NCBI RefSeq assembly: GCF_013122565.1
Contig: NZ_CP053258.1
DNA length: 64,000 bases
Origin: Escherichia coli
GTDB taxonomy: Bacteria; Pseudomonadota; Gammaproteobacteria; Enterobacterales; Enterobacteriaceae
Strand: one strand, 5' to 3'
Shown here: piece after piece, positions 30,104 to 63,605 of the stretch
Position numbering within the stretch: position 1 is the first letter of the stretch
Layout: every line of letters starts with the position of its first letter
Program-made: the position numbers and the translations under genes
The notes under the pieces: generated by a model
Told to the model about the DNA's origin: nothing
What the model saw: the letters and a program-made list of their open reading frames with translations, nothing else
The model's database searches: none

Positions 30104-30131
30104 ATATCGACTTTGTAATAGGAGTCCATCC

Positions 30132-32842: not shown

Positions 32843-32848
32843 ATGAAA

Positions 32849-35876: not shown

Positions 35877-35895
35877 TCAGTAAGACGTTTTGTGA

Positions 35896-36268
<373 letters not shown>

Positions 36269-37177: not shown

Positions 37178-37554
37178 GACAATCTTCCTTGAGTAAAGTG
37201 TGGGAATATGTCACATGAGATGAGGAGAAAACAGCCGACAGGTGAGAATTCAGAATCTATAAAGGGGTATAGCGAAAAAACATTGCATTAGAAAAGTATG
37301 TTTTCGAACATTCAATAAATAAATAGAGACATGCATCACAAATACAATAACAAACAAAGCGTTGATTTTGTGATAAACATAACAAATACAAAGTCGACTT
37401 TAAAAATATCAATTTCATATTGTTGTTATTTAAGCTTTTATTATTTTGGTTTGTGGGGTTTTTCTTCTCGCGTACCCAATTGCTTTCATTAAATCGCACG
37501 AGTATTTTATTTTTACCGCCGGACGGTACCCTAAAAATAAAATAAGGATAATTT

Positions 37555-37998: not shown

Positions 37999-38025
37999 TT
38001 ACTCTCTCCTCTACAGGATAATATT

Positions 38026-39414: not shown

Positions 39415-39428
39415 TTACAGAGGTAAAA

Positions 39429-41668: not shown

Positions 41669-41689
41669 TGGTGATCTATCGGAAGACCA

Positions 41690-44924: not shown

Positions 44925-45503
44925 TTAGCGCACGGCAGCCATTGCCGGAAAATGGCGCGTGGTGCGAATCGGTAGCTGTCGCAGTAAAAGCCAGACAATC
45001 ACCGCTGTAAGAATTTTATCGACCAGGTTTGCGCCTATCACCGTAATCGCCACCGACTCCAACAGGTTTTGCCCCATCGAGTGCATCCAGGCAACGAACA
45101 AATCGGCTCCGCTACCGGTGACACCGCCGAACAGCGCAGTACGCAGCGGTACAGCGACGACCGTTACCGCAAGCGTAATAATCACGCCGCTGACAACGAC
45201 TTTTGGCAGGGTGCGGAACCAACCCGCTCGCGCCAGCCAACCAGCGACCAGGCCTATGACCATCGCGACGGGCGTAAATGCGGCGGCGATCGGGTCGGTC
45301 AGCAATCCCCAAAGTAAATTGGTCAGTAAGCCGGTCAGCATCCCGATCACCGGACCAAGCAGTACCGCGCTAATAAGTGTGCCGATGGAATCGAGAAATA
45401 TAGGTAATTTGACCATGCTGGCCAGTTGCCCGCCGATCATATTGATGGCGATAGATATAACGATTAACACCAGCGCCTGACTGGAAAAGTGGCGACGCGC
45501 CAT
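44925..45503 (-). CDS. Probable ECF transporter substrate-capture (S) component, substrate unknown (accessory)
   Basis: ORF 44925..45602 trimmed to MARRHFSSQALVLIV (GAGAGG ribosome-binding site upstream), giving a roughly 192-aa protein with about six hydrophobic helices, the size and topology typical of S components. Confidence 0.5.
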   Translation of the reverse strand: MARRHFSSQALVLIVISIAINMIGGQLASMVKLPIFLDSIGTLISAVLLGPVIGMLTGLLTNLLWGLLTDPIAAAFTPVAMVIGLVAGWLARAGWFRTLPKVVVSGVIITLAVTVVAVPLRTALFGGVTGSGADLFVAWMHSMGQNLLESVAITVIGANLVDKILTAVIVWLLLRQLPIRTTRHFPAMAAVR

Positions 45504-45525
45504 ATGAAAACCTCTCTGAAAATAG

Positions 45526-45957
45526 TTATTTAACGGGGGAAATATGCAACTCGTCGTAACCAGAAAGCGCGCAAGGCTGGCGGCTAAACGCCAGTTCCTC
45601 AAGGCAGCCGATCACCAGTTCAAGCGTGGTCCGCACGGTACAGCCGGGCATCATATGACCGCCAAGCATCGTGCCGTGTGGATCGGAAACGCAGAGATGA
45701 AGATGTTCACCACTCTGTTCCAGCGTGCCGTTCAATGCGATGACTTCGAACTTACCGCTTAGTAGGGCCGTGTTTTCTTGCCCGGCATAGCGTAAGGCGA
45801 CGTCAGTCAGACTGCCGGTACAACCTGCAATCCACGCGGCGTGGAGTTGTTGTTGCTGCGCGAAGGCGCGCAATAGGGAGAGAACTTCCTGCCCGGGGAG
45901 CAGGCGCAGCGCGTAAAAGCGTGCGGAGGAAGAATATAGGTAGGGCAATGCCATCAT
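45526..45957 (-). CDS. DUF296 / PPC-domain protein (accessory), first gene of the operon
   Basis: 143-aa ORF; the motif order GKFEVIALNG ... HLHLCVSDPHGTMLGGHMMPG ... TTLELVIG parallels the PPC (DUF296) domain as I know it from plant AHL proteins and bacterial homologues. Confidence 0.5.
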   Translation of the reverse strand: MMALPYLYSSSARFYALRLLPGQEVLSLLRAFAQQQQLHAAWIAGCTGSLTDVALRYAGQENTALLSGKFEVIALNGTLEQSGEHLHLCVSDPHGTMLGGHMMPGCTVRTTLELVIGCLEELAFSRQPCALSGYDELHISPVK

Positions 45958-46328
45958 TGGAGTACTCCGAAACTCGGACGTATTGCGGATAATATCGACG
46001 CTGCATCAGTCATATTCTGATATAAGTCAGGGTTTGTGACGGCACAACGAAAAGATTTTGCTACGCTTATTCGTGATTCTGCAAAGTGGAATAAATTCCA
46101 CAGGGGCGGGGCTGAAAACGTGACGTAAGTCAGATAATTGTCTTCTTTGACTGGACAATCATTCCTTTTATTCCATGTTTCGCTTATCCTAGCTGAAGCG
46201 TTTCAGTCGATTAAATGTTCGACAATTAACCAATCAGTCGCAGTTTGCGACAGGTAAGGTTTCCCCGGACGATTTGCTGGATTACTCTGTCTGGCAAATT
46301 TGCTCAGGGAAAACCTTGCAGGAGATCT

Positions 46329-47348
46329 ATGACCGTACGCGTAGCGATAAATGGCTTCGGTCGCATCGGGCGTAATGTGGTTCGTGCTTTGTATGAATCC
46401 GGACGCCGGGCGGAAATTACCGTGGTGGCAATCAACGAACTGGCGGATGCTGCGGGCATGGCGCATTTGTTGAAATATGACACCAGCCATGGCCGTTTTG
46501 CATGGGAAGTACGACAGGAACGCGATCAGCTTTTTGTTGGTGATGACGCCATCCGCGTATTGCATGAACGTTCACTGCAATCGCTCCCCTGGCGTGAACT
46601 TGGCGTTGATGTAGTCCTCGACTGCACCGGCGTATATGGCTCCCGCGAGCATGGCGAAGCGCATATTGCCGCCGGGGCCAAAAAAGTGCTCTTTTCACAT
46701 CCTGGCAGTAACGATCTCGACGCGACCGTTGTTTACGGCGTCAATCAGGATCAACTTCGTGCGGAACACCGCATCGTTTCTAACGCTTCCTGTACCACGA
46801 ATTGCATAATTCCCGTCATCAAATTGTTAGATGATGCGTACGGTATTGAGTCCGGCACTGTGACCACAATTCACTCCGCCATGCACGATCAACAGGTTAT
46901 TGATGCATACCATCCTGACCTGCGTCGCACCCGGGCAGCCAGCCAGTCGATCATTCCGGTCGATACTAAACTGGCCGCCGGTATCACACGATTTTTTCCG
47001 CAATTTAACGATCGCTTTGAAGCGATTGCGGTACGTGTGCCAACCATAAATGTGACGGCAATCGATTTAAGCGTGACGGTGAAGAAACCTGTAAAAGCCA
47101 ATGAAGTCAACCTGTTGCTGCAAAAAGCAGCACAAGGTGCATTTCATGGTATAGTTGACTATACGGAATTGCCGTTGGTCTCTGTAGATTTTAACCACGA
47201 TCCGCACAGTGCCATTGTCGATGGCACCCAAACCCGGGTCAGTGGCGCACACCTGATCAAAACGTTGGTCTGGTGCGATAACGAATGGGGCTTTGCTAAC
47301 CGAATGCTCGACACGACGTTAGCTATGGCTACTGTTGCTTTCAGGTAA
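46329..47348 (+). CDS. epd: D-erythrose-4-phosphate dehydrogenase
   Basis: ORF 46245..47348 trimmed to [15 protein letters not shown] (339 aa); GAPDH family. Confidence 0.9.
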
Positions 47349-47397
47349 GACGCAAGCAGCGTCTGCAAAACTTTTAGAATCAACGAGAGGATTCACC

Positions 47398-48561
47398 ATG
47401 TCTGTAATTAAGATGACCGATCTGGATCTTGCTGGGAAACGTGTATTTATCCGTGCGGATCTGAACGTACCAGTAAAAGACGGGAAAGTAACCAGCGACG
47501 CGCGTATCCGTGCTTCTCTGCCGACCATCGAACTGGCCCTGAAACAAGGCGCAAAAGTGATGGTAACTTCCCACCTGGGTCGTCCTACCGAAGGCGAGTA
47601 CAACGAAGAATTCTCTCTGCTGCCGGTTGTTAACTACCTGAAAGACAAACTGTCTAACCCGGTTCGTCTGGTTAAAGATTACCTCGACGGCGTTGACGTT
47701 GCTGAAGGTGAACTGGTTGTTCTGGAAAACGTTCGCTTCAACAAAGGCGAGAAGAAAGACGACGAAACCCTGTCCAAAAAATACGCTGCACTGTGTGACG
47801 TGTTCGTAATGGACGCATTCGGTACTGCTCACCGCGCGCAGGCTTCTACTCACGGTATCGGTAAATTCGCTGACGTTGCGTGCGCAGGCCCGCTGCTGGC
47901 AGCTGAACTGGACGCGCTGGGTAAAGCACTGAAAGAACCTGCTCGCCCGATGGTGGCTATCGTTGGTGGTTCTAAAGTATCTACCAAACTGACCGTTCTG
48001 GACTCCCTGTCTAAAATCGCTGACCAGCTGATTGTTGGTGGTGGTATCGCTAACACCTTTATCGCGGCACAAGGCCACGATGTGGGTAAATCCCTGTACG
48101 AAGCTGACCTGGTTGACGAAGCAAAACGTCTGCTGACCACCTGCAACATCCCGGTTCCGTCTGATGTTCGCGTAGCAACCGAGTTCTCTGAAACCGCTCC
48201 GGCTACCCTGAAATCTGTTAACGATGTGAAAGCTGACGAGCAGATCCTGGATATCGGTGATGCTTCCGCTCAGGAACTGGCTGAAATCCTGAAGAATGCG
48301 AAAACCATTCTGTGGAACGGTCCGGTTGGCGTGTTCGAATTCCCGAACTTCCGCAAAGGTACTGAAATCGTGGCTAACGCTATCGCAGACAGCGAAGCGT
48401 TCTCCATCGCTGGCGGCGGCGACACTCTGGCAGCAATCGACCTGTTCGGCATTGCTGACAAAATCTCCTACATCTCCACTGGCGGCGGCGCATTCCTCGA
48501 ATTCGTGGAAGGTAAAGTACTGCCTGCAGTAGCGATGCTCGAAGAGCGCGCTAAGAAGTAA
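47398..48561 (+). CDS. pgk: Phosphoglycerate kinase
   Basis: ORF 47335..48561 trimmed to the ATG at 47398 ([15 protein letters not shown]), giving 387 aa. Confidence 0.9.
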
Positions 48562-48565
48562 AAAA

Positions 48566-48595
48566 TCACAGGGCAGGGAAACCTGCCCTTGTTTC
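48566..48595 (+). terminator. Hairpin after pgk
   Basis: CAGGGCAGGGAAACCTGCCCTTG stem-loop followed by TTTCAG; weak T-tract. Confidence 0.35.
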
Positions 48596-48621
48596 AGCGC
48601 GCTTTTAGAGCACGCATTTTT

Positions 48622-48748
48622 TCATACTCTAAATAATTCGAGTTGCAGGAAGGCGACAAGAGAGTGAATCCCCAGGAGCTTACATAAGTAAGTGACCGGG
48701 GTGAGCGAACGCAGACGCAGCACATGCAACTTGAAGTATGACGAGTAT
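48622..48748. repeat. ERIC (IRU) element, about 127 bp
   Basis: Contains the ERIC core GTGAATCCCCAGGAGCTTACATAAGTAAGTGACCGGGGTGAGCG; a near-identical copy lies in inverted orientation at 63477..63605. Confidence 0.7.
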
Positions 48749-48775
48749 AAGGCCCGACGATACAGGACAAGAGAC

Positions 48776-49855
48776 ATGTCTAAGATTTTTGATTTCGTAA
48801 AACCTGGCGTAATCACTGGTGATGACGTACAGAAAGTTTTCCAGGTAGCAAAAGAAAACAACTTCGCACTGCCAGCAGTAAACTGCGTCGGTACTGACTC
48901 CATCAACGCCGTACTGGAAACCGCTGCTAAAGTTAAAGCGCCGGTTATCGTTCAGTTCTCCAACGGTGGTGCTTCTTTTATCGCTGGTAAAGGCGTGAAA
49001 TCTGACGTTCCGCAGGGTGCTGCTATCCTGGGGGCGATCTCTGGTGCGCATCACGTTCACCAGATGGCTGAACATTATGGTGTTCCGGTTATCCTGCATA
49101 CCGACCACTGCGCGAAGAAACTGCTGCCGTGGATCGACGGTCTGCTGGACGCGGGTGAGAAACACTTCGCTGCTACCGGTAAGCCGCTGTTCTCTTCTCA
49201 CATGATCGACCTGTCTGAAGAATCTCTGCAAGAGAACATCGAAATCTGCTCTAAATACCTGGAGCGCATGTCCAAAATCGGCATGACTCTGGAAATCGAA
49301 CTGGGTTGTACCGGTGGTGAAGAAGACGGCGTGGACAACAGCCACATGGACGCTTCTGCACTGTACACCCAGCCGGAAGACGTTGATTACGCATACACCG
49401 AGCTGAGCAAAATCAGCCCGCGTTTCACCATCGCTGCGTCCTTCGGTAACGTACACGGTGTTTACAAGCCGGGTAACGTGGTTCTGACTCCGACCATCCT
49501 GCGTGATTCTCAGGAATATGTTTCTAAGAAACACAACCTGCCGCACAACAGCCTGAACTTCGTATTCCACGGTGGTTCCGGTTCTACTGCTCAGGAAATC
49601 AAAGACTCCGTAAGCTACGGCGTAGTGAAAATGAACATCGATACCGATACCCAATGGGCAACCTGGGAAGGCGTTCTGAACTACTACAAAGCGAACGAAG
49701 CTTATCTGCAGGGTCAGCTGGGTAACCCGAAAGGCGAAGATCAGCCGAACAAGAAATACTACGATCCGCGCGTATGGCTGCGTGCCGGTCAGACTTCGAT
49801 GATCGCTCGTCTGGAAAAAGCATTCCAGGAACTGAACGCGATCGACGTTCTGTAA
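48776..49855 (+). CDS. fbaA: Class II fructose-bisphosphate aldolase
   Basis: ORF 48692..49855 trimmed to MSKIFDFVKPGVITGDD (359 aa). Confidence 0.9.
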   Translation: MSKIFDFVKPGVITGDDVQKVFQVAKENNFALPAVNCVGTDSINAVLETAAKVKAPVIVQFSNGGASFIAGKGVKSDVPQGAAILGAISGAHHVHQMAEHYGVPVILHTDHCAKKLLPWIDGLLDAGEKHFAATGKPLFSSHMIDLSEESLQENIEICSKYLERMSKIGMTLEIELGCTGGEEDGVDNSHMDASALYTQPEDVDYAYTELSKISPRFTIAASFGNVHGVYKPGNVVLTPTILRDSQEYVSKKHNLPHNSLNFVFHGGSGSTAQEIKDSVSYGVVKMNIDTDTQWATWEGVLNYYKANEAYLQGQLGNPKGEDQPNKKYYDPRVWLRAGQTSMIARLEKAFQELNAIDVL

Positions 49856-49878
49856 GTCATTCCTTTCTGCTTATCTCA

Positions 49879-49908
49879 AGGCCCGCTCTGCGGGTCTTTT
49901 TTTCGCCA
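49879..49908 (+). terminator. Rho-independent terminator after fbaA
   Basis: GGCCCGCTCTGCGGGTC followed by TTTTTTT. Confidence 0.5.
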
Positions 49909-50045
49909 AAAGCAAGGTGATACAGATGAGAAATCTGTGATCTATTTGGCAAAATTATGCTTTATTGTTTACCCTTGTCAGACTGCCCGTCATAAGGCGG
50001 CGGAGTGTATTTCTCCATTTTGAGTCAGTTGAAAAGGAATATTGA

Positions 50046-50906
<861 letters not shown>

Positions 50907-51044
50907 TCAACGCTGAGGCCAGATAATACTCTCTGGCCTCTCTCTTATTAGTTTTTCTGATTGCCAATTAATATTATCAATTTCCGCTAATAACAATCCC
51001 GCGATATAGTCTCTGCATCAGATACTTAATTCGGAATATCCAAC

Positions 51045-51680
51045 GTGTTTTCTTATTACTTTCAAGGTCTTGCTCTTGGGGCAGCTATGATTCTGCCGCT
51101 CGGCCCACAAAATGCTTTTGTGATGAATCAGGGCATTCGTCGTCAGTACCACATTATGATTGCCTTACTTTGCGCTATCAGCGATTTGGTCCTGATTTGC
51201 GCGGGGATTTTTGGTGGCAGCGCGTTATTGATGCAGTCACCGTGGTTGCTGGCGCTGGTCACCTGGGGCGGCGTAGCCTTCTTACTCTGGTATGGTTTTG
51301 GCGCTTTTAAAACAGCAATGAGCAGTAATATTGAGTTAGCCAGTGCCGAAGTCCTTAAGCAAGGCAGATGGAAAATTATCGCCACCATGCTGGCAGTGAC
51401 CTGGCTGAATCCGCATGTTTACCTGGATACTTTTGTTGTACTGGGCAGCCTCGGCGGGCAACTTGATGTGGAACCAAAACGTTGGTTTGCGCTCGGGACA
51501 ATTAGCGCCTCTTTCTTGTGGTTCTTTGGTCTGGCTATTCTCGCAGCCTGGCTGGCACCGCGTCTGCGCACGGCAAAAGCACAGCGCATTATCAATCTGG
51601 TAGTGGGATGTGTGATGTGGTTTATTGCCTTGCAGCTGGCGAGAGACGGTATTGCTCATGCACAAGCCTTGTTCAGTTAG
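51045..51680 (+). CDS. argO: Arginine exporter (LysE family)
   Basis: 211-aa membrane ORF. Confidence 0.9.
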
Positions 51681-51772
51681 GCGCTATCTGATGGAAAAAT
51701 AAAACAGAGGCGCTAAGCTTGCCTCCAGAGGTCCTGAATTTTAGGCAAGTCAAATAACACGGAGAGACTAAC

Positions 51773-52513
51773 GTGAAGTTCAAAGTTATCGCCCTGGCGG
51801 CATTAATGGGTATTAGCGGGATGGCAGCGCAGGCTAACGAATTGCCGGATGGACCGCATATTGTCACCTCCGGTACGGCAAGCGTGGATGCGGTGCCAGA
51901 CATTGCCACTCTTGCGATTGAAGTCAACGTGGCCGCGAAGGATGCCGCTACTGCCAAGAAACAGGCAGATGAGCGCGTCGCACAATACATTTCCTTCCTT
52001 GAACTCAATCAGATCGCGAAAAAAGATATCAGCTCAGCGAACTTACGCACCCAGCCAGATTATGATTATCAGGATGGTAAAAGTATCCTGAAAGGCTACC
52101 GTGCTGTGAGAACGGTGGAAGTCACGCTCCGTCAGTTAGACAAACTGAATTCCTTGCTGGATGGCGCGCTGAAGGCGGGTCTTAACGAAATTCGTTCTGT
52201 GTCGCTGGGCGTGGCGCAGCCGGATGCCTATAAAGATAAAGCGCGTAAGGCAGCGATTGATAACGCGATTCATCAGGCGCAGGAACTGGCGAACGGCTTT
52301 CATCGCAAACTGGGGCCGGTATATAGCGTGCGCTACCATGTTTCCAACTATCAGCCCAGCCCAATGGTGCGGATGATGAAAGCCGATGCCGCGCCGGTCT
52401 CAGCCCAGGAAACTTACGAGCAGGCCGCTATTCAGTTTGATGATCAGGTCGATGTGGTCTTCCAGTTAGAACCTGTGGATCAACAACCCGCTAAAACACC
52501 TGCCGCACAATAA
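51773..52513 (+). CDS. yggE: Periplasmic DUF541/SIMPL-like protein YggE
   Basis: 246-aa ORF with a signal peptide. Confidence 0.85.
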   Translation: MKFKVIALAALMGISGMAAQANELPDGPHIVTSGTASVDAVPDIATLAIEVNVAAKDAATAKKQADERVAQYISFLELNQIAKKDISSANLRTQPDYDYQDGKSILKGYRAVRTVEVTLRQLDKLNSLLDGALKAGLNEIRSVSLGVAQPDAYKDKARKAAIDNAIHQAQELANGFHRKLGPVYSVRYHVSNYQPSPMVRMMKADAAPVSAQETYEQAAIQFDDQVDVVFQLEPVDQQPAKTPAAQ

Positions 52514-52680
52514 TACTTGTAGCCCGACGTATTTGTCGGGCTAATGCTTTTACCCGATATTGCCTCCTTTTTCTGTAATTTTCTGTAAAACCATGACGTA
52601 ATCACCTATCTTTGCCCGCAATTTCATCAAGGATAGGCTGACTGAAACGGTTAAGCGGACAAGGATGCGGGGGAGGGAGT

Positions 52681-53577
52681 ATGGACATTTTTATTTCGAA
52701 AAAGATGCGCAATTTCATTTTATTAGCGCAAACCAATAATATTGCCCGGGCGGCAGAAAAAATCCATATGACGGCTTCGCCATTTGGCAAAAGCATTGCT
52801 GCGCTGGAAGAACAAATTGGCTATACGCTATTTACCCGCAAAGATAATAATATCAGCCTCAATAAAGCCGGACAGGAACTGTATCAAAAGCTGTTCCCGG
52901 TTTATCAACGACTTTCTGCGATTGATAATGAAATACATAACTCAGGACGTCGTTCACGAGAAATTGTGATAGGCATAGATAATACTTATCCGACAATTAT
53001 TTTCGATCAGTTGATTAGTCTCGGGGATAAGTATGAAGGCGTGACCGCCCAGCCAGTTGAGTTCAGCGAAAACGGCGTTATCGATAATCTTTTTGACCGT
53101 CAGTTAGATTTTATTATCTCCCCACAGCATGTATCTGCACGAGTTCAGGAACTGGAAAACCTGACTATCAGTGAATTACCACCGCTGCGATTGGGCTTTC
53201 TCGTTTCTCGCCGTTATGAAGAGCGTCAAGAGCAAGAGCTGCTTCAGGAGCTGCCCTGGCTACAAATGCGCTTTCAGAACCGGGCCAACTTCGAAGCAAT
53301 GATTGATGCGAATATGCGACCTTGTGGGATCAATCCAACCATTATTTATCGTCCCTACAGTTTTATGGCCAAAATCAGCGCCGTGGAGCGCGGACATTTT
53401 CTGACGGTGATCCCGCATTTTGCCTGGCGACTGGTGAATCCGGCAACGCTGAAATATTTTGATGCACCGCACAGGCCGATGTATATGCAGGAATATCTTT
53501 ATTCAATCAGAAATCATCGTTATACCGCCACGATGCTTCAGCATATTGCTGAAGATCGTGACGGGACGAGTCATTAA
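52681..53577 (+). CDS. ygfI: LysR-family transcriptional regulator YgfI
   Basis: 298-aa ORF with an N-terminal HTH; convergent with scpC, overlapping by 4 nt. Confidence 0.8.
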   Translation: MDIFISKKMRNFILLAQTNNIARAAEKIHMTASPFGKSIAALEEQIGYTLFTRKDNNISLNKAGQELYQKLFPVYQRLSAIDNEIHNSGRRSREIVIGIDNTYPTIIFDQLISLGDKYEGVTAQPVEFSENGVIDNLFDRQLDFIISPQHVSARVQELENLTISELPPLRLGFLVSRRYEERQEQELLQELPWLQMRFQNRANFEAMIDANMRPCGINPTIIYRPYSFMAKISAVERGHFLTVIPHFAWRLVNPATLKYFDAPHRPMYMQEYLYSIRNHRYTATMLQHIAEDRDGTSH

Positions 53578-55052
53578 CCCAGCATCGAGCCGGTTGCAAT
53601 TAAATTACGGTGTAAGTCGAAGACGTGGCTAAGATCGTGGTGAATATGTCCGCCAGGCGCATTTTCCAGATAGCGATGCAGATAATCCCGATACATAGGA
53701 TGTGCACAATTATCAATGATCGTGCGGGCGCGTTGAAGCGGGGAAAGACCGCGCAGATCGGCGATCCCTTGTTCGGTGATGATCACTTTGACGCTGTGTT
53801 CGCTGTGATCAACATGGCTGCACATTGGCACGACGGTTGAGATCTTGCCTTCTTTAGCAATCGACGGGGCCATAAAGATCGACAGATACGCGTTGCGTTC
53901 AAAATCACCGCTGCCGCCGATGCCGTTCATCAGATCGACCCCGGCTACGTGCGTTGAGTTGGCATGCCCGTAAATATCAAACTCCAGGCCGACGTTCAGA
54001 GCGATGACGCCCAGACGACGGATGATTTCCGGGTTATTGGAAATCTCCTGCGGACGCAACACAATGCGGCTGGCAAAGTAATCCATATTGTCGTAAATCT
54101 TGCGCAGGGAATCGGCCGAGATTGTCAGGCTGGAGGCGCTGGCCCCGCTGATTTTGCCGGTTTCCAGTAAATGCACCACCGATTCCTGTAGCACTTCCGA
54201 ATACATCATAAACGGAGGAATTTCCGGGTTTTCCCCCAGACGCGCCATTACCGCATTATTGATATTGCCCACGCCACTTTGCAGCGGCAGAAATTCCGGC
54301 GGAATACGCCCATGCGCCATTTCCTGCAATAAGAACGTGACCACGTTATCGGCAATCTGCTGGCACATGGGATTTTGCTTATCCAGCATATTACCGGCGT
54401 CGGGCAAGTTGGTTTCCACGACGGCGACAATCTTTTTCGGATCGATTTGCACATAGCGGGTACCGACGCGATCCATTGCATGGAAGATCGACACGCTATT
54501 GCGCCGCGGTGGCGCGCCAGGAATCACAATATCCGCCAGTTCTGCAACGCGCGGATCGTGATAGTGATTGAGTTCAATGATCACTTTCTTCGCTCGCAGC
54601 AGCCAGGTCGGCGCATTACCGATCCCGCTGGTTAACCAGACTCGACCATCTGGTGCCAGTGCCGATGCTTCAATGACGGCAACATCAATGTCGCCGAAGA
54701 AACCGTAATTGACCATTTGCGCCACTTCGCTCAAATGCAGGTCAACGAAACTCACCGCGCCCTGATTGATCTTTTTACGTAAACCGGACGATGTTTGATA
54801 TGGCGCACGCCAGGAAACAGCATCGGCGTCAGAAAGTACATCGTCAGCGGCGGCGCTGATTGACGCCCCCGTCAGCAGGCGAATTTGATACGGCTTTTTG
54901 GCCTCATGCTGTTCGTTAGCTCTGCGGGCAATCGCGGTCGGTAGGGCTTTCGGCGAACCCGCTGGGGTAAAGCCGCTAAATGCCACCATGTCGTTATGCT
55001 GGATAATTTCTGCCGCTTCATCGGCGGTCATCCTTGTCCATTGAGTTTCCAT
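53574..55052 (-). CDS. scpC: Propionyl-CoA:succinate CoA-transferase
   Basis: 492-aa ORF METQWTRMTADEAAEI...; last gene of the sbm operon. Confidence 0.85.
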   Translation of the reverse strand: METQWTRMTADEAAEIIQHNDMVAFSGFTPAGSPKALPTAIARRANEQHEAKKPYQIRLLTGASISAAADDVLSDADAVSWRAPYQTSSGLRKKINQGAVSFVDLHLSEVAQMVNYGFFGDIDVAVIEASALAPDGRVWLTSGIGNAPTWLLRAKKVIIELNHYHDPRVAELADIVIPGAPPRRNSVSIFHAMDRVGTRYVQIDPKKIVAVVETNLPDAGNMLDKQNPMCQQIADNVVTFLLQEMAHGRIPPEFLPLQSGVGNINNAVMARLGENPEIPPFMMYSEVLQESVVHLLETGKISGASASSLTISADSLRKIYDNMDYFASRIVLRPQEISNNPEIIRRLGVIALNVGLEFDIYGHANSTHVAGVDLMNGIGGSGDFERNAYLSIFMAPSIAKEGKISTVVPMCSHVDHSEHSVKVIITEQGIADLRGLSPLQRARTIIDNCAHPMYRDYLHRYLENAPGGHIHHDLSHVFDLHRNLIATGSMLG

Positions 55053-55075
55053 TTTTACTCCTTCGTTCGCAGGGA

Positions 55076-55861
55076 TTAATGACCAACGAAATTAGGTTTA
55101 CGTTTTTCGAGGAAAGCGTTCATCCCTTCCTGGTAATCTTCGCTGTCATAAACCGCGCGGCGCATCCCCTGAATACGTTCAAATTCATCGGAGTTCATGG
55201 TGTGTGCTTCGCCCAGTACACGCAGCTCTTCTTTGATAACGGCAATGGCTAACGGCGCTTTCTCAGAGATGTGGTGCGCCATTTGTAAGGTGAAATCTTC
55301 CAGTTCTTCCACTTCCACAACATGGTTGAGGATGCCGACAGCCAGCGCGCGCTGGGCGGTGATTGGCGAAGCGGTAAAAATCAGCTCTTTGACAATGTGG
55401 AAGCCCGCGTCGCGGGTCAGGTTGTGAATGCCGACCAGGTTATACGGGACGCCGAGGTTTACAGGCGTCATTGAGAAGGTTGAGGTACTGGCGGCGATGA
55501 TCAGATCGGAACTCATGATCATTTCAAATGCGCCACCCCAAACACTACCTTCCACCATCGAAATGATCGGTTTCGGGAATTTTTGGATCATGCGGGTGAT
55601 TTGACGCAATGGATCATCATAGGAGAGCGGATCGCGACCGCCAGACGGCAGTTCGTGAATATCGTGACCTGCGGAGAAGACTTTGGATCCACTCGGCGCG
55701 CGCAAAATGATACAGCGAATTTCCGGCCGGTTGAGATCGCTTAACGCCTGCATAAGATCATCAATAAAGACTTTACTTAAGGCATTAAGTTTTCGGCCAT
55801 AGTTAAACTCAATGACCGCCACTTTGTTGATAGTGGCAACGTTCACATACTGATAAGACAT
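55076..55861 (-). CDS. scpB: Methylmalonyl-CoA decarboxylase (crotonase fold)
   Basis: ORF 55076..55903 trimmed to MSYQYVNVATINKV (261 aa). Confidence 0.85.
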   Translation of the reverse strand: MSYQYVNVATINKVAVIEFNYGRKLNALSKVFIDDLMQALSDLNRPEIRCIILRAPSGSKVFSAGHDIHELPSGGRDPLSYDDPLRQITRMIQKFPKPIISMVEGSVWGGAFEMIMSSDLIIAASTSTFSMTPVNLGVPYNLVGIHNLTRDAGFHIVKELIFTASPITAQRALAVGILNHVVEVEELEDFTLQMAHHISEKAPLAIAVIKEELRVLGEAHTMNSDEFERIQGMRRAVYDSEDYQEGMNAFLEKRKPNFVGH

Positions 55862-55871
55862 AAAAATTCCT

Positions 55872-56867
55872 TTAATCAAAATATTGCGTCTGGATAAATT
55901 CACTGAGCTGCCGCAGGCCGGTGCGCGGTGAGAGCGTATTGTTTTTGACCGCTAAAAGCGTCTGGCGGTAATAGCGATCGAAATCTTCATTCGCGAACAG
56001 GTGATTCAGTACTTCTTCTTCGGTCTGCTTACGCAGCCATTCCACCGATTGTTGTTGCCGCACTTGTTGTAAACGACCACTGGCAGTTAGCGCGGTTTTG
56101 AAGTCGATGATGGCGTGCCAGATCTCATCGATTCCACGTTTTTCCAGTGCGCTACAAGTCAGAACCCGTGGCTGCCATTCGTCGTATTTACGTCGCAGAA
56201 TATGCAGGGCACTCTCGTACATATGCCGGGCAATGGCGACATTGGTATGGTTATCGCCATCGTCTTTGTTGATAACGATCAGATCAGCCACTTCCATCAG
56301 CCCTTTTTTAATGCCCTGCAGATCATCGCCGCCACCGGCAATTTGCAACGAGATAAAACAGTCCACCATGCGGGCGACTTCCGTTTCCGACTGCCCGACG
56401 CCAACCGTTTCGACAATCACTACGTCATAACCCGCCGCTTCGCATAACAGCATTAATTCCCGCGCTCGCTGACTGGCACCGCCCAGATGACCGGAGGATG
56501 GTACCGGGCGAATAAACGCCGTCTCGGCACGCGCCAGGTCATTCATGCGGGTTTTATCCCCGAGAATGCTACCGCCAGTGACCGGACTGCTGGGATCGAC
56601 CGCAATAACCGCAACCTTTAATCCATCACGAATCAACAACATGCCAAAGGCTTCAAGAAAGGTACTTTTCCCCGCGCCGGGTGTGCCGGTAACGCCCAGT
56701 CGCAGGGCGTTACCGCAGTACGGCATAATGGCATCAAGCAGTTGCGTACTTAGCGCCTGATGACGCGGGTGACGGCTTTCCACCAGCGTCATGGCCTGGG
56801 CGAGTGTGGCACGCTCACCCTGACGTAAGCGGCGAATACTTTCTGCCAGCGTGGCTTCATTAATCAT
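55872..56867 (-). CDS. argK: MeaB-like G-protein chaperone for methylmalonyl-CoA mutase
   Basis: 331-aa ORF with a P-loop GTPGAGKST. Confidence 0.85.
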
Positions 56868-59004
56868 GATGCTGGCTTATCAGATTCAGTACGTCGCGCA
56901 CGCTGTCGAGCATAGGTGTACCTGGACCATAAATCGCCGCCACGCCGCGCTCTTGCAGGAAGGCGTAATCCTGCGGCGGAATGACGCCACCCGCGACCAC
57001 GCAGATATCTTCGCGTCCCCATTTTTTCAGCGCTTCGACCAGTTCCGGGATCAGCGTTTTATGACCGGCAGCCAGTGAGGATGCGCCCACTACGTGAACG
57101 TCGTTTTCTACGGCCAGGCGGGCGATCTCTTCAGGTGTAGAGAACATCGGGCTTAAATCTACGTCGAAACCGAGATCGGAATAGGCGCTGGCGATCACTT
57201 TCGCGCCGCGATCGTGCCCATCCTGGCCCATTTTAGCGATCAGAATGCGCGGGCGACGACCATTGTCGGCAAGGAACTGCTCCGTTTGCGCAACAATGGC
57301 ATCGAACTCGGAGGCCGATTTCTCAGACTGATGATAGCTTTGCGCAATCACGCCGGTAACACACTGGCTTGGCACCAGATAACGGTCGAAAGCGGCTTCC
57401 AGCGCATCGGAAATTTCACCCAGGGTGGCGCGAACGCGAGCGGCATTAACAGCGGCAGCCAGCAGGTTTTCGTTATGCTGTGCGGCGTGAGTCAGGGCGT
57501 TCAACGCGGCGGTTACGGCGGCATCATCACGGGTGGCGCGAATGCGTTCCAGCGAAGCAATTTGCTCGTTACGCACCATCACGTTGTCGATCTCAAGTAC
57601 ATCGGTTTCGTCTTCGTGATCCAGTTTGTACTTGTTGACACCAACGATGACACGCTTGCCCTGGTCGATCAGCGACTGTTCGCGCGCTGAGGCCTCTTCG
57701 ATCATTCGTTTTGGCAGACCTGCTTCGATCGCTTTCGCCATGCCACCGGCTTCGTCGATCTGTTGGATAATAGCTCTGGCTTGTTTGACGATTTGATCGG
57801 TCAGCGACTCAATGTAATAGGATCCGGCCAGTGGATCGACGGTGCGGCAGAGTTCTGATTCTTCCTGGATGATGATCTGGGTGTTGCGGGCAATGCGTGC
57901 TGAGAAATCGGTAGGCAAACCAAGCGCTTCGTCAAAGGCGTTGGTATGCAGTGACTGAGTACCGCCCAGCGTCGCAGCCAGTGCTTCAATGGTGGTGCGG
58001 ATAACGTTGTTATACGGATCCTGTTCAGTCAGGCTCCAGCCTGAGGTCTGGCAGTGGGTACGCAGCGCCAGTGATTTCGGATCCTGTGCGCCAAATCCAC
58101 TGACCGCTTCGCTCCATAAATAACGTGCCGCACGCAACATGGCGACGTTCATAAACAGATCCATGCCGATGCCGAAGAAGAACGACAGGCGAGGAGCGAA
58201 GTCATCAATTTTCAGTCCGGCAGAGATTGCTGCTTTGATGTACTCAATCCCATCGGCGAGCGTAAATGCTACCTGCTGCACGCAGTTGGCACCCGCTTCA
58301 CCCATGTGGTAACCGCTGATACTGATGGTATTAAATCGCGGCATGTTGCCGGAACACCAGGCGATGATGTCGGCGATAATGCGCATTGACGGTTTTGGCG
58401 GGTAAATATAGGTGTTGCGGCAAAGATACTCTTTGAGGATATCGTTCTGAATGGTGCCGGTCAGTTTATCAGGTGTAACACCTTGCTCTTCTGCGGCGAC
58501 GATATAAAACGCCAGTACTGGTAGCACTGCGCCATTCATGGTCATCGAAACCGACATTTTATCCAGCGGGATCTGGTCGAACAGGACTTTCATATCTTCC
58601 ACGGTGTCGATAGCGACGCCCGCTTTGCCTACGTCGCCCGCCACTCGTGGGTTATCGGAGTCGTAGCCTCGGTGGGTGGCAAGGTCAAACGCAACGGAAA
58701 GACCTTTTTGCCCGGCGGCCAGGTTACGGCGATAAAAAGCGTTGGACTCTTTTGCTGTCGAGAAACCAGCATACTGACGGATGGTCCACGGTTGGGCGGT
58801 ATACATAGTGGCACGCGGGCCACGAACGTAGGGCGGCAAACCAGGAAGGGTACCTGTCACCTCCAGATTATCGAGATCGGCTTCGGTATACAGCGGCTTG
58901 ATGGCGATCCCTTCCGCGGTTTGCTGAACCAGCGAGTCGACAGTTTTCTCCCGACGGCTCAATTCCTTGTTGGCAAGCTGTTGCCACTCCTGCACGTTAG
59001 ACAT
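56860..59004 (-). CDS. scpA: Methylmalonyl-CoA mutase (sleeping beauty mutase)
   Basis: ORF 56860..59025 trimmed to [16 protein letters not shown] (714 aa); C-terminal B12-binding domain. Confidence 0.9.
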
Positions 59005-59207
59005 TATTTGCTCCGTAAAACGCAATCAAAATGAGGGTATTTGCGCCTACGGTGAGCTTTTTACGTGGGTTTGTCGCCAGCAAAAAAAATGCATTCAGAC
59101 GTCGTTTTTTGCCGCCTGAGATTTGTCTATTTTGTGATGTGATTCAAGGAATATAAAAAGAAGTGAGGATAACGCCTGATATGTGCTATCAGGCATTATT
59201 TGATGGA

Positions 59208-60101
59208 TTAATCCTGACGAAGGACTTTGTGACCATAATCGAGTAACGCATCAGTGACTTTACGCATCATGCGGCTTTCAGGAGCAAAGCGGTGCCAGTA
59301 GAGCATCCGTCGTTGAAATAGCCCAGGCGTTAAGTCAATCAGTTCGCCGCTGGCCAGCTCTTTCTCTATTTGCAGGTGCGGAATCATACAGCAGGTGGTG
59401 CCCTGGCGAGCAAGTTGCACGAACGCTTCTGAAGAATTAACGATATGGCAGGGTACGCTGCCAGGAGGCAGATCGAAGTTTTGCTGCAAAAAGGCCTGGT
59501 GCATATCGTCAAGATGGTCAAACGCGACCACTGGCGCTTTTAATAATGCCGAACGCGTTACGCCGTTAGGGAAATATTTTTCGGCAAACGGTTTTGAGCT
59601 GACGAACAGATAGTCGAGCGCACCAAGTTTATCGACAAGACAACTCGGCAGCGCCTGATGTTGAATACTCACCGCGCCGACCACTTCGCCGCGACGCAGA
59701 CGTTCCTGAGTGCGGGTTTCATCTTCTACCTGCAAGTTGAGGCGGATAGGCGAGTCAGCCAACACAGGAGCCAGTGCCGGAAGCAACCACGTCGCCAGAC
59801 TGTCGGCGTTGACCGCCAGTGAAAGCAGCAGCGGAGTCGAACCGGTTTGTTCATCACCCAGCCACTCTTCTTCCAGCAACTCCACCTGGCGCAGCAGTGC
59901 CAGCAGTTTTTGCCCTTGTTCCGTCGGGCGCGGCGGTACGGTACGCACCAACAGCGGCTGCCCGAACATATTTTCCAGTTGCTTAATGCGCTGTGAGACG
60001 GCTGATTGTGTAATGCACAGCTTTTGTGCCGCGCGCTCAAATCCTCGTTCACGTATCACCGCATCCAGTGCCTGTAATGTTCTGTAGTCCGGGCGTTTCA
60101 T
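59208..60101 (-). CDS. argP: LysR-family regulator ArgP (IciA)
   Basis: 297-aa [43 protein letters not shown]... Confidence 0.9.
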
Positions 60102-60170
60102 TGCTGTTGTCTGCTCCTGGTAAATGCTTTTTCCGCACTATGACACAATTTTGCGTTGGGTACAGAGCAT

Positions 60171-61496
60171 TTAACGCATACAAAAGCGGTCGTAATGGAA
60201 GTTTTGGCTGGCAATCCCATTTTCATATAACCCTTTGCTGAGCGCTTTGGCAAAACTCTGTGGGCCGCAAAACCAGAAATGGGTGTCACCTTTATTTGCT
60301 ATTTTATCAGCAAGATAGTGCGACTGTAGGCGCTCACCTTTATGCGCATCAAGCAGATGCAGTGTGACACTGGCCAGGGCACAAAGTGAGGTAAGTTTAT
60401 CAACATACCATGCATCCTCGCTTCGGCTGACGCAATACCAGAGATCCACAGGAACACGGGACGCGCCATGCTGGTTCAGATACTCAAGCTGGGCGATAAA
60501 GGGGGTAATGCCGATGCCTCCAGCTATCCATACCTGGCGGGAGCAAGGGAGAGTAAAATCAAACTTTCCCCATGGCCCTTCAACGATGGCGGACTGGCCG
60601 ATTTTTATCGAGGATGCAAGGGTAGAGGTATAATCCCCTAAATTTTTGATGGCAAAGCGCAACGTGTTCTTCTCTATTGCATATGAAGCGATAGTAAAAG
60701 GGTGAGATTCTTTACTGTGTGCGAACGTTAAGAATGCAAACTGACCCGGAGAATAGTCGATGGCATGTTCCAGCTCCAGTATGACTTCGGTAATTTGTCC
60801 CGGATGGTTAACAATACTTTTAATGGTGGCCTGATGCTTGTTTTTATTACCGTTTAATTTCAGCAGCGAAATGAAAGCCGCAAAGACGCCTGGGATGGTA
60901 ATTAAAATTAATAAATACGCCGCAGGAGTTTCCCACCAATATGATTTAAACAAAGCAGTAAACACATGAAAGGCAATTGCCAGATAAAAAACAGGGAACA
61001 AACGGTGAACAAGATGAAATAAATGATAGGGAACCTTTTTGCTTAGAGACACGAAAACCATCGCTATCATAATAAACATTGCACATTCACCCGCTAACAG
61101 TCCCGCATGAAGCCAATTTTCTTGTACTGGCGTCAGGTTAATATCAACGATTTTACCAGGGTGAGTAAGCCAGCAAAAGGCGACGAATAACTGGGGTAAT
61201 TTTTCATCCAGCCAGTGGGTGAAAGCAAAAGCTATGGCGCATATTCCTGCCCACTTATGTAATCGCCACGCTTTATCCAGACCGCCCAGCACTTTGTTAA
61301 ACCATGATGAACGCAGCGATAAACACATCGTCAGCGTCATCAGACACCACGCAAGGGTTCCCGTAAAAAAGAGTATGTTTTGTCGAAGGAACCATATTAG
61401 CGCGATTGGCTTTTCACGAAAAATATCACCGGACGACAAAAAAATAAGGCATGTGACAAAGCAAACCAATGTACCTGTAAGATTAGCTTTTTTCAT
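60171..61496 (-). CDS. NOX/FRE-family membrane flavocytochrome-like protein: ferric-reductase TM domain plus FAD- and NAD-binding domains (accessory)
   Basis: 441-aa ORF with N-terminal TM helices carrying spaced histidines (HKWAGICAIAFAFTHW ... HLFHLVH ... HVF), then HPFTIAS (FAD-binding-type) and GGIGITPF (NAD(P)-binding-type) motifs. Distinctly AT-rich by eye. Confidence 0.55.
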   Translation of the reverse strand: MKKANLTGTLVCFVTCLIFLSSGDIFREKPIALIWFLRQNILFFTGTLAWCLMTLTMCLSLRSSWFNKVLGGLDKAWRLHKWAGICAIAFAFTHWLDEKLPQLFVAFCWLTHPGKIVDINLTPVQENWLHAGLLAGECAMFIMIAMVFVSLSKKVPYHLFHLVHRLFPVFYLAIAFHVFTALFKSYWWETPAAYLLILITIPGVFAAFISLLKLNGNKNKHQATIKSIVNHPGQITEVILELEHAIDYSPGQFAFLTFAHSKESHPFTIASYAIEKNTLRFAIKNLGDYTSTLASSIKIGQSAIVEGPWGKFDFTLPCSRQVWIAGGIGITPFIAQLEYLNQHGASRVPVDLWYCVSRSEDAWYVDKLTSLCALASVTLHLLDAHKGERLQSHYLADKIANKGDTHFWFCGPQSFAKALSKGLYENGIASQNFHYDRFCMR

Positions 61497-61557
61497 TTTT
61501 TATTTCATTTTGGCAGAGGAGCATAGAATAGTTCCATGCTCCCGTTAAACAGGGTGA

Positions 61558-61818
61558 TTATTTATAGAAAATTACAGTGGCGTGGATATAATTTTTACCG
61601 GAGAAAGAACTGATGTAGTAATTACTGGCTTGCAATTCTTCCGCTTTCTCTTTGATTTGACTTTCAACGCCCGCTGGATTGCTATTGTGTGTGGAAATAC
61701 TCACTTTTGATATCTGTTCAAGATTATTGTCCGGTTTTTGTATCTCGGTTGCTGCAAATACGTGTCCTGTGAGAGTGCAAAGAAATAACGCGGCAAATAA
61801 ATTTTGCTTAATAGACAT
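61558..61818 (-). CDS. Small secreted YhcN/BhsA-family (DUF1471) protein
   Basis: 86-aa ORF with a signal peptide (LFAALFLCTLTGHVFA) and a C-terminus ending ...ATVIFYK, typical of BhsA/YdgH-like proteins. Confidence 0.5.
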   Translation of the reverse strand: MSIKQNLFAALFLCTLTGHVFAATEIQKPDNNLEQISKVSISTHNSNPAGVESQIKEKAEELQASNYYISSFSGKNYIHATVIFYK

Positions 61819-61834
61819 AATAACTCCTTTTATA

Positions 61835-62464
61835 TTAAAGAAAATGATTAAATACTTGTGTAATAAGATCAGGGATTTGCGCTAATGCATTTTGCTCGGC
61901 GAGTTCGCGTCCCGGTTGGGTTTTGTCGACGCCTTCCGCACGTAAAATATGTGTATTGGTAATGCCCATTAATTTCAGCGTGGCTTGCAGGTAACTTTCC
62001 TGATGATCCAGCGCCAGATGTGCTTTATCGCAATAGATACCGCCGCGCGTCGAGACAATAAACGTCGGTTTATCCGTCAGTAACCCAACGGCACCAGCGG
62101 AAGTAAAACGAAACGTTAAACCAGCCTGACAGACCTGATCTATCCAGGTTTTGAGGCCAGATGAAACGCTGTGATTAATCATCGGCGCGCCAATAATGAG
62201 CACATCGCACGATGCCAGTTCTTCAATAGCGGCGTGAATCCCATTCACCTCCTGCTGAATTTGTGCGTTCTCGCACTCCGCTTTACCGCAAAGCGCCAGA
62301 AAGGTTTCTTCACGCAAATGGGGCGGCGGCGTCAGGCCGACGTCGCGATGAATAATTGTGGCTTGCGGAAAGTGTTGGCAAAGCGCTTCTACCAGCGCCT
62401 GGCTTAATTTCCGCGAACTTGAATGCTTAAGCATTGGGCTGCTGTCGATATGGAGAATTTTCAT
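61835..62464 (-). CDS. FMN-dependent NADH-azoreductase-like flavoprotein (AzoR family)
   Basis: 209-aa ORF; MKILHIDSSP and the overall layout resemble AzoR/ACP-phosphodiesterase-family flavodoxin-like proteins. Confidence 0.6.
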   Translation of the reverse strand: MKILHIDSSPMLKHSSSRKLSQALVEALCQHFPQATIIHRDVGLTPPPHLREETFLALCGKAECENAQIQQEVNGIHAAIEELASCDVLIIGAPMINHSVSSGLKTWIDQVCQAGLTFRFTSAGAVGLLTDKPTFIVSTRGGIYCDKAHLALDHQESYLQATLKLMGITNTHILRAEGVDKTQPGRELAEQNALAQIPDLITQVFNHFL

Positions 62465-62564
62465 GGGCTTGCTCTCGTTTCTGCGATGAGAGAAGTTTAA
62501 CTGTTGTTGATATGGTGATTAAATAGACATAATTGAACTTCATTGTTGTGAAAATAGAACAATC

Positions 62565-63461
62565 ATGATCGACTGGAATGATTACTACTACTTTGCCCTG
62601 ATTGCCGATGAAGGCAGCTACAGCCAGGCGGCGCTGCGTGCGGGCGTGTCGAAATCGGTATTAAGCCGACGAATGGCTGCGCTGGAGGAGCGCCTTGGCG
62701 TACGGCTTATTCAGCGAACTACGCGGCGTCTGGCCCTGACGGCGGAAGGCGAACAGTTTGCCGTCGAATGTCGGGCGCTGGTGGCGCAGGGGGAACGGGC
62801 CAGAGCGGTGGTGATGGCCGCCCAGGAAAGCCCACAGGGAATGCTGCGCGTCAGCGCACCGGTATTTATGGCTGAAACATGGTTTGGTGAGTTTGTCAGT
62901 GAGTTTATCGCCCGCTGGCCCCTGGCGAAGGTGCAACTGCTGGCAATTAATCGCCCGGTGGATATGGTCGCTGAAGGCATTGATATTGCGCTGGTTACGG
63001 CTTCCGGCGCGCTTGCGGACTCGACGCTGCATTATAAAAAATTACATACCCAGGCCGATATTTTAGTTGCCAGTTCGCAGTGGCTGGCCCGCCATCCGCA
63101 GGTGAAGGTCATTGACGATCTTAACCGCGTTGACGGGATCCTCCGCCTGACGAACAATGGCGGGAGCCAGTGGCAGTTAATTAATGGCGAACAGGAGATT
63201 ACGCTGCAACCCGAGGCTCGTTTGCAGACGAATAACATTCGCGTCATGTTGCAGGCAGTGCTTGGTGGGAATGGCGTGGCGTTATTGCCTCAATTTGCCT
63301 GTAAACAGGGGCTTGCGAACGGTGAATTGGTGCGCCTGTTTGCACCGTGGAGCGGCATACCCAGACCGTTGTATGCTTTATTTGCGGGGCGAAAGGGGAT
63401 GCCCGCCATTGCGCGATATTTTATGGATGAGTTATCTGTACGGCTTGCCAACGGGGTCTGA
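62565..63461 (+). CDS. LysR-family transcriptional regulator, divergent from the AzoR-like gene
   Basis: 298-aa ORF with an N-terminal HTH (YSQAALRAGVSKSVLSRRMAALE). I recall K-12 carrying only a LysR pseudogene fragment (yqfE) at this position. Confidence 0.65.
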   Translation: MIDWNDYYYFALIADEGSYSQAALRAGVSKSVLSRRMAALEERLGVRLIQRTTRRLALTAEGEQFAVECRALVAQGERARAVVMAAQESPQGMLRVSAPVFMAETWFGEFVSEFIARWPLAKVQLLAINRPVDMVAEGIDIALVTASGALADSTLHYKKLHTQADILVASSQWLARHPQVKVIDDLNRVDGILRLTNNGGSQWQLINGEQEITLQPEARLQTNNIRVMLQAVLGGNGVALLPQFACKQGLANGELVRLFAPWSGIPRPLYALFAGRKGMPAIARYFMDELSVRLANGV

Positions 63462-63476
63462 CTCGCTTTTTTTGTA

Positions 63477-63605
63477 TATACTCGTCATACTTCAAGTAGC
63501 ATGTGCTGCGTCTGCGTTCGCTCACCCCAGTCACTTACTTCTGTAAGCTCCTGGGGATTCACTCTCTTGTCGCCTTCCTGCAACTCGAATTATTTAGAGT
63601 ATAAT
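63477..63605. repeat. ERIC (IRU) element, inverted relative to the copy at 48622..48748
   Basis: Its reverse complement matches 48622..48748 almost base for base, including the GTGAATCCCCAGGAGCTTACA core. Confidence 0.7.

Follow-up and report, generated by a model that had tools for sequence, protein, structure and literature searches.

The methylmalonyl-CoA mutase systems of Propionibacterium shermanii, Methylobacterium and human, like that of Escherichia coli, all combine a B12-binding domain and a G-protein chaperone. The E. coli system differs from these in that its mutase, ScpA, is a single chain of the large-subunit type, the operon containing no gene for a separate small subunit, and in that the partners of the mutase are a decarboxylase and a CoA transferase instead of an epimerase or a carboxyltransferase. 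The pathway and the "often silent" status of the K-12 operon have been described (PMC3850637), and an epimerase gap has been pointed out, with the operon presented as an incomplete pathway (PMC5512728). Published work is divided on whether the native operon alone constitutes a complete succinate-to-propionate cycle.

Based on its gene content and homology, the region studied here, part of a 64,000-nucleotide stretch (the window), is almost certainly an intact chromosomal sbm ("sleeping beauty mutase") operon that is read on the minus strand, away from argP, together with the convergent gene ygfI/srsR (Table 1). The locus is already known as the ordinary full-length E. coli sbm operon and matches K-12 gene for gene; a sequence-only reading of the window had rightly called it no novelty. 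Going from argP towards ygfI, the genes follow one another as scpA, argK, scpB and scpC, all on the same strand; the open reading frame map, the K-12 annotation and the colinear alignment agree on this order.

Table 1. Genes and intergenic regions of the sbm locus (positions in the window)
Feature	Position	Strand	Description
ygfI/srsR	52681-53577	+	298 aa, 897 nt; LysR-family transcription factor, convergent with scpC
scpC (ygfH)	53574-55052	-	492 aa, 1479 nt; predicted propionyl-CoA:succinate CoA transferase
scpB (ygfG)	55076-55861	-	261 aa, 786 nt; predicted methylmalonyl-CoA decarboxylase, crotonase fold
argK (ygfD/meaB)	55872-56867	-	331 aa, 996 nt; predicted G-protein chaperone of the mutase
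scpA (sbm)	56860-59004	-	714 aa, 2145 nt; predicted adenosylcobalamin-dependent methylmalonyl-CoA mutase
argP-scpA intergenic	59005-59207	-	203 nt; leader and putative operon promoter region
yggE-ygfI intergenic	52514-52680	+	167 nt; terminator-like hairpin and ygfI leader

A six-frame listing gave raw open reading frames at 52681-53577 (+), 53574-55052 (-), 55076-55903 (-), 55872-56867 (-) and 56860-59025 (-), and the K-12 start codons of scpB (ATG, 55861) and scpA (ATG, 59004) bring these to the limits 52681-59004. The raw scpB frame extends to a GTG at 55903; its start was set at 55861, where AAGGA precedes the ATG, as the resulting 261-aa product fits the crystallised protein. Candidate ribosome-binding sites were also found for scpA (GGAG, 7 nt before the ATG) and scpC (a strong Shine-Dalgarno sequence, GAAGGAG). 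The junctions are as close as the sequence-only reading had stated: scpA and argK overlap by 8 nt (ATGATTAA), the argK start lying within the scpA stop region, and the argK-scpB and scpB-scpC gaps of 10 and 23 nt equal those of K-12. The 4-nt overlap of ygfI with the 3′ end of scpC, noted by the same reading, consists of the palindrome TTAA (53574-53577), in which both convergent genes have their stop codon. All five proteins score above their NCBIfam equivalog cut-offs, in agreement with the gene names assigned earlier, LysR-type ygfI included, and the HMM E-values of 0 to 1e-147 rule out chance reading frames. Each of the proteins is found, identical in sequence, on 1000 or more public contigs that bear the name E. 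coli.

We compared the locus gene by gene with b2917-b2921 of the K-12 reference (NC_000913.3). Nucleotide lengths, start codons and stop codons are identical throughout, as are gene order, strands, the four junctions, the length of the 203-nt leader and the flanking genes yggE and argP. This pairwise comparison, the check proposed in the sequence-only reading, revealed no internal stops, frameshifts, truncations or indels in the five genes, bearing out its description of the four scp/argK genes as full-length. The differences amount to 60 nucleotide substitutions (scpA, 19; argK, 13; scpB, 4; scpC, 11; ygfI, 13), 8 of them non-synonymous and all 8 in the four enzymes: H27Q and V537A in ScpA, T54A, E81D and A116T in ArgK, V9A in ScpB, and N11D and V277E in ScpC. 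The 13 differences in ygfI are all synonymous, leaving YgfI 100% identical to b2921, and the five proteins together range from 99.1 to 100% identity. Outside the genes, the K-12 leader differs by two substitutions, at 59154 and 59170, and the 166-nt yggE-ygfI region of K-12 is one nucleotide shorter than that of the window, the extra nucleotide falling in a G-rich tract. This tract, just before the ygfI ATG, varies among the window, K-12, O157 TR01, Z226-1 and CFT073.

The domain content of each enzyme agrees with its assignment. ScpA scores 1252.3 bits against NCBIfam NF006944 (cut-off 876) and contains MM_CoA_mutase (PF01642, residues 28-539) and B12-binding (PF02310, 586-701) domains, the latter enclosing the DxHxxG cobalamin-ligand motif as DGHDRG (595-600). 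Among solved structures it is closest to human MMUT (2xij) and the P. shermanii mutase (1req), and it aligns over nearly its full length to 2xij_A and 1req_A (E ~1e-270). As it is 99.7% identical to the K-12 enzyme, which has been characterised in the literature, it is predicted to have adenosylcobalamin-dependent succinyl-CoA/methylmalonyl-CoA isomerase activity.

ArgK reaches 494.7 bits against the MeaB model NF006958 (cut-off 329) and also passes a second MeaB equivalog model (TIGR00750). It carries a P-loop (GTPGAGKS, 61-68), untouched by the three substitutions, and an NKDD motif (200-203); residues 1-331 match the E. coli YgfD structure 2p67, and the protein aligns with the Methylobacterium and human chaperones MeaB (2qm7) and MMAA (2www). 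The historical annotation would instead make argK a kinase of LAO/AO amino-acid transport, and the name "LAO/AO transport system kinase" still stands on PDB 2p67 and several database entries. We regard that function as scarcely credible given the two MeaB models, the homology to structures of MeaB and MMAA in which the mutase partner is also present (8dpb, 8gju), the translational coupling of argK to scpA through the 8-nt overlap and the Sbm-YgfD interaction reported in the literature, all of which favor a mutase chaperone.

ScpB scores 486.8 bits against NF008506 (cut-off 257) and matches PDB 1ef8 and 6n92 over residues 1-261 (1ef8_A aligned over 1-261). It retains H66, G110 and Y140, which we take to be the active-site residues of 1EF8, with roles presumably as given by Benning et al. 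2000. ScpC scores 754.5 bits against TIGR03458 (YgfH_subfam, cut-off 658.7), contains AcetylCoA_hydro (PF02550) and AcetylCoA_hyd_C (PF13336) domains, and has 2nvv and AarC (4eu3) as its nearest structures.

The mechanism that we propose follows the characterised K-12 orthologues. ScpA with adenosylcobalamin, aided by the MeaB-type GTPase ArgK, would convert succinyl-CoA to methylmalonyl-CoA, which ScpB would decarboxylate to propionyl-CoA. ScpC would then move CoA from propionyl-CoA to succinate, freeing propionate and regenerating succinyl-CoA, so that the net reaction would be succinate to propionate plus CO2. This pathway may be stereochemically incomplete because the mutase yields (R)-methylmalonyl-CoA and the operon has no epimerase gene. 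We also infer that the operon would depend on imported B12 and, by analogy with K-12, its expression in laboratory culture is probably poor.

The 8-nt overlap and the 10- and 23-nt gaps shared with K-12 give indirect support to co-transcription. A consensus scan found nothing resembling a sigma-70 promoter on the operon strand of the 203-nt scpA leader. Promoter-like sites were fewer in total than expected from shuffled sequence (5 observed, 7.0 expected). At 59154 a substitution peculiar to the window produces the hexamer TATATT, read on the operon strand; as a new promoter it was rejected as unsupported, since the scan made no call there and a spacing of 16-18 nt offers no acceptable −35 hexamer. 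Terminator-like sites were somewhat enriched (15 observed, 8.0 ± 2.9 expected), mostly as short stems within coding sequence; they include a hairpin of yggE at 52520-52543, and a further hairpin lies just past the argP stop at 59174-59194 (GCCTGATA...TATCAGGC). An Rfam scan of the whole window gave no match within 52-59 kb. The GC content of the operon (53.5%) is unremarkable against that of the window (51.2%) and gives no compositional sign of recent transfer; ygfI is lower, at 44.5%.

YgfI passes the SrsR equivalog model NF047842 (635.2 bits, cut-off 425) and has the HTH_1 and LysR_substrate Pfam domains. SrsR is a stationary-phase stress regulator (PMC9181523). As LysR genes commonly adjoin their targets, and ygfI abuts scpC and is kept even in strains that have lost the operon (see below), one might see in it a dedicated regulator of the sbm genes. 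We consider this unlikely. The two genes are convergent, 3′ end to 3′ end, whereas LysR-target pairs typically have divergent promoters, and the 10 target loci that the study of SrsR obtained by gSELEX are described in a text from which scpA, scpC and sbm are absent (PMC9181523). The SrsR box TCAGATTTTGC was absent at up to 2 mismatches from both intergenic regions, 59005-59207 and 52514-52680, and its matches across the window are at chance level (28 observed, 24.8 ± 4.4 expected). No link between SrsR and the sbm operon was found in this analysis.

Comparison across 5,426 complete E. coli genomes revealed two main forms of the locus. At least 80% of the interval is present in 79% (4,272/5,426), and a deletion of ~4.3 kb with one common junction, flanked by microhomology, is found in 20.5% (1,114/5,426), including CFT073; NCTC9022 and PM06121 carry the same allele. 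The CFT073-type allele lacks the equivalent of ~53728-57985 of the window, with scpB and argK gone entirely along with most of scpC and the 3′ part of scpA, and keeps the flanking yggE, srsR and argP, the 5′ part of scpA and the last 153 nt of scpC. The window has the undeleted form. A literature search found no description of this allele, the sole co-occurrence of the terms (PMC7186358) being an irrelevant virulence-gene label. The sequence-only reading had spoken of a conserved state; this stands for the four-fifths majority, and the shared junction in 1,114 genomes makes the operon common, not strictly core.

Where the operon is retained it is under purifying selection, as indicated by dN/dS values of 0.062, 0.029 and 0.024 against three strains (dS up to 0.076). 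A contrary view would be that the operon is a relic heading for pseudogenisation, intact by chance after selection has gone; the K-12 operon has after all been called often silent (PMC3850637) and the pathway incomplete (PMC5512728), and about one in five complete genomes has lost it by one common deletion, which argues that it is dispensable. Such decay is very improbable given 5.4 kb of coding sequence free of any disrupting mutation, intact catalytic motifs and these same low ratios, which indicate continuing purifying selection. We put forward tentatively, as a possibility short of an expectation, that the intact/deleted dimorphism reflects a real metabolic difference between lineages, the route being under strong purifying selection where kept and having been lost once, by a single deletion, in the CFT073-type lineage.

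The locus lies in an uninterrupted block colinear with K-12 (46108-60153), of which 49879-60153 is 98.75% identical. The earlier description of this part of the window as unrearranged holds for this block. Just beyond argP, on the upstream side and at 53 nt from its start codon, the window carries 3.1 kb absent from K-12, which has only a yqfE pseudogene remnant there. With these two qualifications, on the conserved state and on the arrangement, the earlier reading is supported. The block provides a reliable anchor for reading the variable segments on both sides.

The intact operon places this strain among the E. coli majority that keeps the sbm genes, outside the CFT073-type deletion lineage, and the locus leaves the known picture of the pathway unchanged. 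If the dimorphism does reflect a metabolic difference between lineages, comparing natural strains with the intact and deleted forms would allow a direct test of what the operon does physiologically, a question that has long been unclear.

The five genes assigned to 52681-59004 by the sequence-only reading are recovered in a six-frame ORF list with K-12 start codons. The raw ORFs of scpB and scpA run slightly further 5′, to GTG 55903 and TTG 59025, respectively. A Shine-Dalgarno-like sequence precedes both K-12-position ATGs (55861 and 59004), and the resulting 261-aa ScpB aligns position by position with the crystal structure 1ef8; with K-12 starts for scpB and scpA, the limits of the locus are exact. 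The 8-nt scpA/argK overlap (ATGATTAA) and the argK-scpB (10 nt) and scpB-scpC (23 nt) spacers are the same as in K-12. The palindrome TTAA at 53574-53577 supplies the stop codons of both convergent genes, scpC and ygfI, and is the 4-nt overlap already reported between them.

Features of the window and of comparison loci carrying the deletion allele (bit scores are given with the NCBIfam cut-off)
Feature	Position	Strand	Assignment or remark
ygfI (srsR)	52681-53577	+	SrsR, NF047842 (635 vs 425 bits)
scpC	53574-55052	-	YgfH-subfamily succinate CoA transferase, TIGR03458 (754.5 vs 658.7 bits)
scpB	55076-55903 (raw ORF)	-	methylmalonyl-CoA decarboxylase, NF008506 (487 vs 257 bits); K-12 start ATG 55861
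argK	55872-56867	-	MeaB GTPase, NF006958 (495 vs 329 bits)
scpA	56860-59025 (raw ORF)	-	methylmalonyl-CoA mutase, NF006944 (1252 vs 876 bits); K-12 start ATG 59004
Deletion allele, L003	3894-4949		corresponds to window ~53728-57985
Deletion allele, L004	3894-4988		corresponds to window ~53728-57985
Deletion allele, L007	21802-22857		corresponds to window ~53728-57985
K-12-absent segment	29120-30054		243-aa ORF 29265-29996, no Pfam match
K-12-absent segment	31054-32848		520-aa DUF1266 protein 31201-32763
K-12-absent segment	35878-37476		SPFH/Band 7 protein 36269-37177
K-12-absent segment	42841-46107		~3.3-kb block between yggC and epd
Beyond argP	60171-61496	-	ferric-reductase-like/FAD/NAD membrane flavoprotein
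Beyond argP	61558-61818	-	YdgH/BhsA-like small protein
Beyond argP	61835-62464	-	Flavodoxin_2-type FMN azoreductase
Beyond argP	62565-63461	+	LysR regulator, full-length and intact

Gene-by-gene comparison with K-12 MG1655 (3057000-3070000 and its annotation), the check proposed by the earlier reading, revealed no frameshift or truncation. All five counterparts of b2917-b2921 have the K-12 nucleotide length, start codon and stop codon and no internal stops, with 19 (scpA), 13 (argK), 4 (scpB), 11 (scpC) and 13 (ygfI) nucleotide differences. These change two residues in ScpA (H27Q, V537A), three in ArgK (T54A, E81D, A116T), one in ScpB (V9A) and two in ScpC (N11D, V277E), and YgfI/SrsR is identical to the K-12 protein. 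BLAST aligns 49879-60153 colinearly with K-12 (98.75% identity, three gaps of 1 nt each). One gap was placed in the yggE-ygfI spacer; none lies inside the nine compared genes, since all nine have K-12 lengths.

Each of the five proteins passes the curated threshold of its NCBIfam model (equivalog or subfamily), and their Pfam architectures are consistent with these identities. ScpA carries the cobalamin-ligand motif DGHDRG (595-600), ArgK the P-loop GTPGAGKS (61-68) and NKDD, and ScpB the residues H66, G110 and Y140; none of the eight substitutions relative to K-12 falls within these motifs. Over their full length, ArgK matches the E. coli structure 2p67 and ScpB the E. coli structures 1ef8/6n92; the nearest structures to ScpA are human MMUT and the P. 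shermanii alpha chain, and those to ScpC are 2nvv and AarC. The exact sequence of each protein is found on at least 1000 public contigs, named as an E. coli protein.

By analogy with the characterised K-12 orthologues, ScpA with adenosylcobalamin, helped by the MeaB-type GTPase ArgK, would interconvert succinyl-CoA and methylmalonyl-CoA, ScpB would decarboxylate the latter to propionyl-CoA, and ScpC would transfer CoA onto succinate, releasing propionate and regenerating succinyl-CoA. E. coli is not known to synthesise B12 de novo, and the pathway would therefore depend on imported corrinoid. The four-gene cobalamin-dependent succinate-to-propionate operon has been termed "often silent" (PMC3850637), and the native operon has been argued to be incomplete, since its mutase yields the (R)-enantiomer and so calls for an epimerase (PMC5512728). 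A simple consensus scan for sigma-70-like promoters found none on the operon strand of the 203-nt argP-scpA spacer, which fits, if weakly, with low operon expression. This spacer differs from K-12 at two positions, 59154 and 59170, both just downstream of the argP hairpin. At 59154, TGTATT becomes TATATT on the operon strand, a change absent from the four other strains compared; no matching −35 element is present. The operon does not have the appearance of a decaying relic: with its four genes concatenated, dN/dS is 0.062 relative to K-12, 0.029 relative to Z226-1 and 0.024 relative to O157:H7 TR01. Base composition is unremarkable (53.5% GC in the operon, 44.5% in ygfI, 51.2% in the window), and no Rfam match was found in the region of the locus.

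Kobayashi et al. (PMC9181523) described SrsR as a regulator of the stress response in stationary phase, with the box TCAGATTTTGC and 10 target loci identified by gSELEX; the srsR gene adjoins the operon. That SrsR regulates the operon is nevertheless very improbable: scpA, scpC and sbm are mentioned nowhere in PMC9181523, ygfI is convergent with the operon and not divergent from it, and a search of the whole window allowing up to 2 mismatches returned 28 box matches (24.8 ± 4.4 expected by chance), none of them in the intergenic regions on either side of the locus. We therefore regard srsR as a neighbour of the operon. The G-rich tract between a Shine-Dalgarno-like GGAGG and the ygfI ATG (52670-52680) varies in length and sequence among strains (window, GGGAGT; K-12, GGGGG; O157 TR01, GGGGGGG; Z226-1, GGGGGT; CFT073 and NCTC9022, GGGGGG with a G to A change upstream), a small hypervariable site that could affect how srsR is translated.

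The description of this part of the window as unrearranged core holds for the block 46108-60153, which contains the locus and is uninterrupted relative to K-12, but 3.1 kb of extra DNA follows beyond argP, outside the locus. Here the window has 3,115 nt (60154-63268, considered together with 63269-63480) encoding four proteins, in place of the 126 nt and yqfE pseudogene of K-12, yqfE being a C-terminal remnant of the window's LysR gene; in NCTC9022 a 61-nt azoreductase remnant survives. Only 232 of the 5,426 complete genomes of E. coli have the segment (96-97% identity), and its exact proteins (QJU27081-QJU27084, E. coli) are known from only 1-2 contigs. Between rpiA and the LysR gene lies a repeat-type element of ~126 nt (63477-63602) that K-12 lacks in this place; it is 98% identical, inverted, to the K-12 fbaA-pgk spacer.

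Overall, the window is colinear with K-12 between pheV (~2510) and position 60153, just upstream of argP, broken by several window-only segments, four of which (29120-46107) sit within otherwise colinear DNA. The SPFH/Band 7 gene occupies the position of a frameshifted prohibitin-family gene in CFT073, which has an ECF-transporter cluster between yggC and epd. Coding sequence at the window start (4-2164) comprises a JetD protein (DUF3322 and JetD_C) and the C-terminal portion of an SbcC/JetC-like protein with Walker B, the end of a Wadjet-type system; next to it is a tRNA (2524-2596) that aligns with K-12 pheV. Because K-12 homology begins only at ~2510, this end looks like a pheV-associated island. 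Repeat-type elements are also noted at 14429-14585 and 35983-36199, and away from 63477-63602 Rfam identified two naRNA4 (REP-derived) and two ES036/CssrF copies in the window.

The operon had also been called the conserved state. With 52681-59004 as megablast query against 5,426 complete E. coli genomes, the locus was detected in all but one (5,425). At least 80% of it is present in only 4,272; the remainder mostly retain 31-32%. The annotation of NCTC9022, PM06121 and CFT073 shows a 5′ fragment of scpA joined to the final 153 nt of scpC and marks the two pieces as pseudogenes; srsR is kept, that of PM06121 with an internal stop. Alignment to the window places the missing DNA at ~53728-57985 (~4.3 kb), removing scpB, argK, the rest of scpC and the 3′ part of scpA, and the scpA remnant carries further small deletions. 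Imperfect microhomology (TCAATG.T.GTGCGG) is present at both breakpoints. A 301-nt probe spanning the junction was covered (≥80%) in 1,114 of 5,426 genomes (20.5%), including CFT073, the archetypal phylogroup B2 strain; this shared junction indicates a single inherited event. About 40 genomes show other states, e.g. insertions. The intact operon is thus the majority state, yet not strictly core.

The observation is confirmed and its interpretation supported with these two qualifications, and every tested aspect of the locus was already known. The intact/deleted dimorphism, combined with the strong purifying selection seen where the operon is intact, might conceivably help to uncover the physiological role of the operon, a tentative prospect that concerns E. 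coli as a species and not this window in particular.
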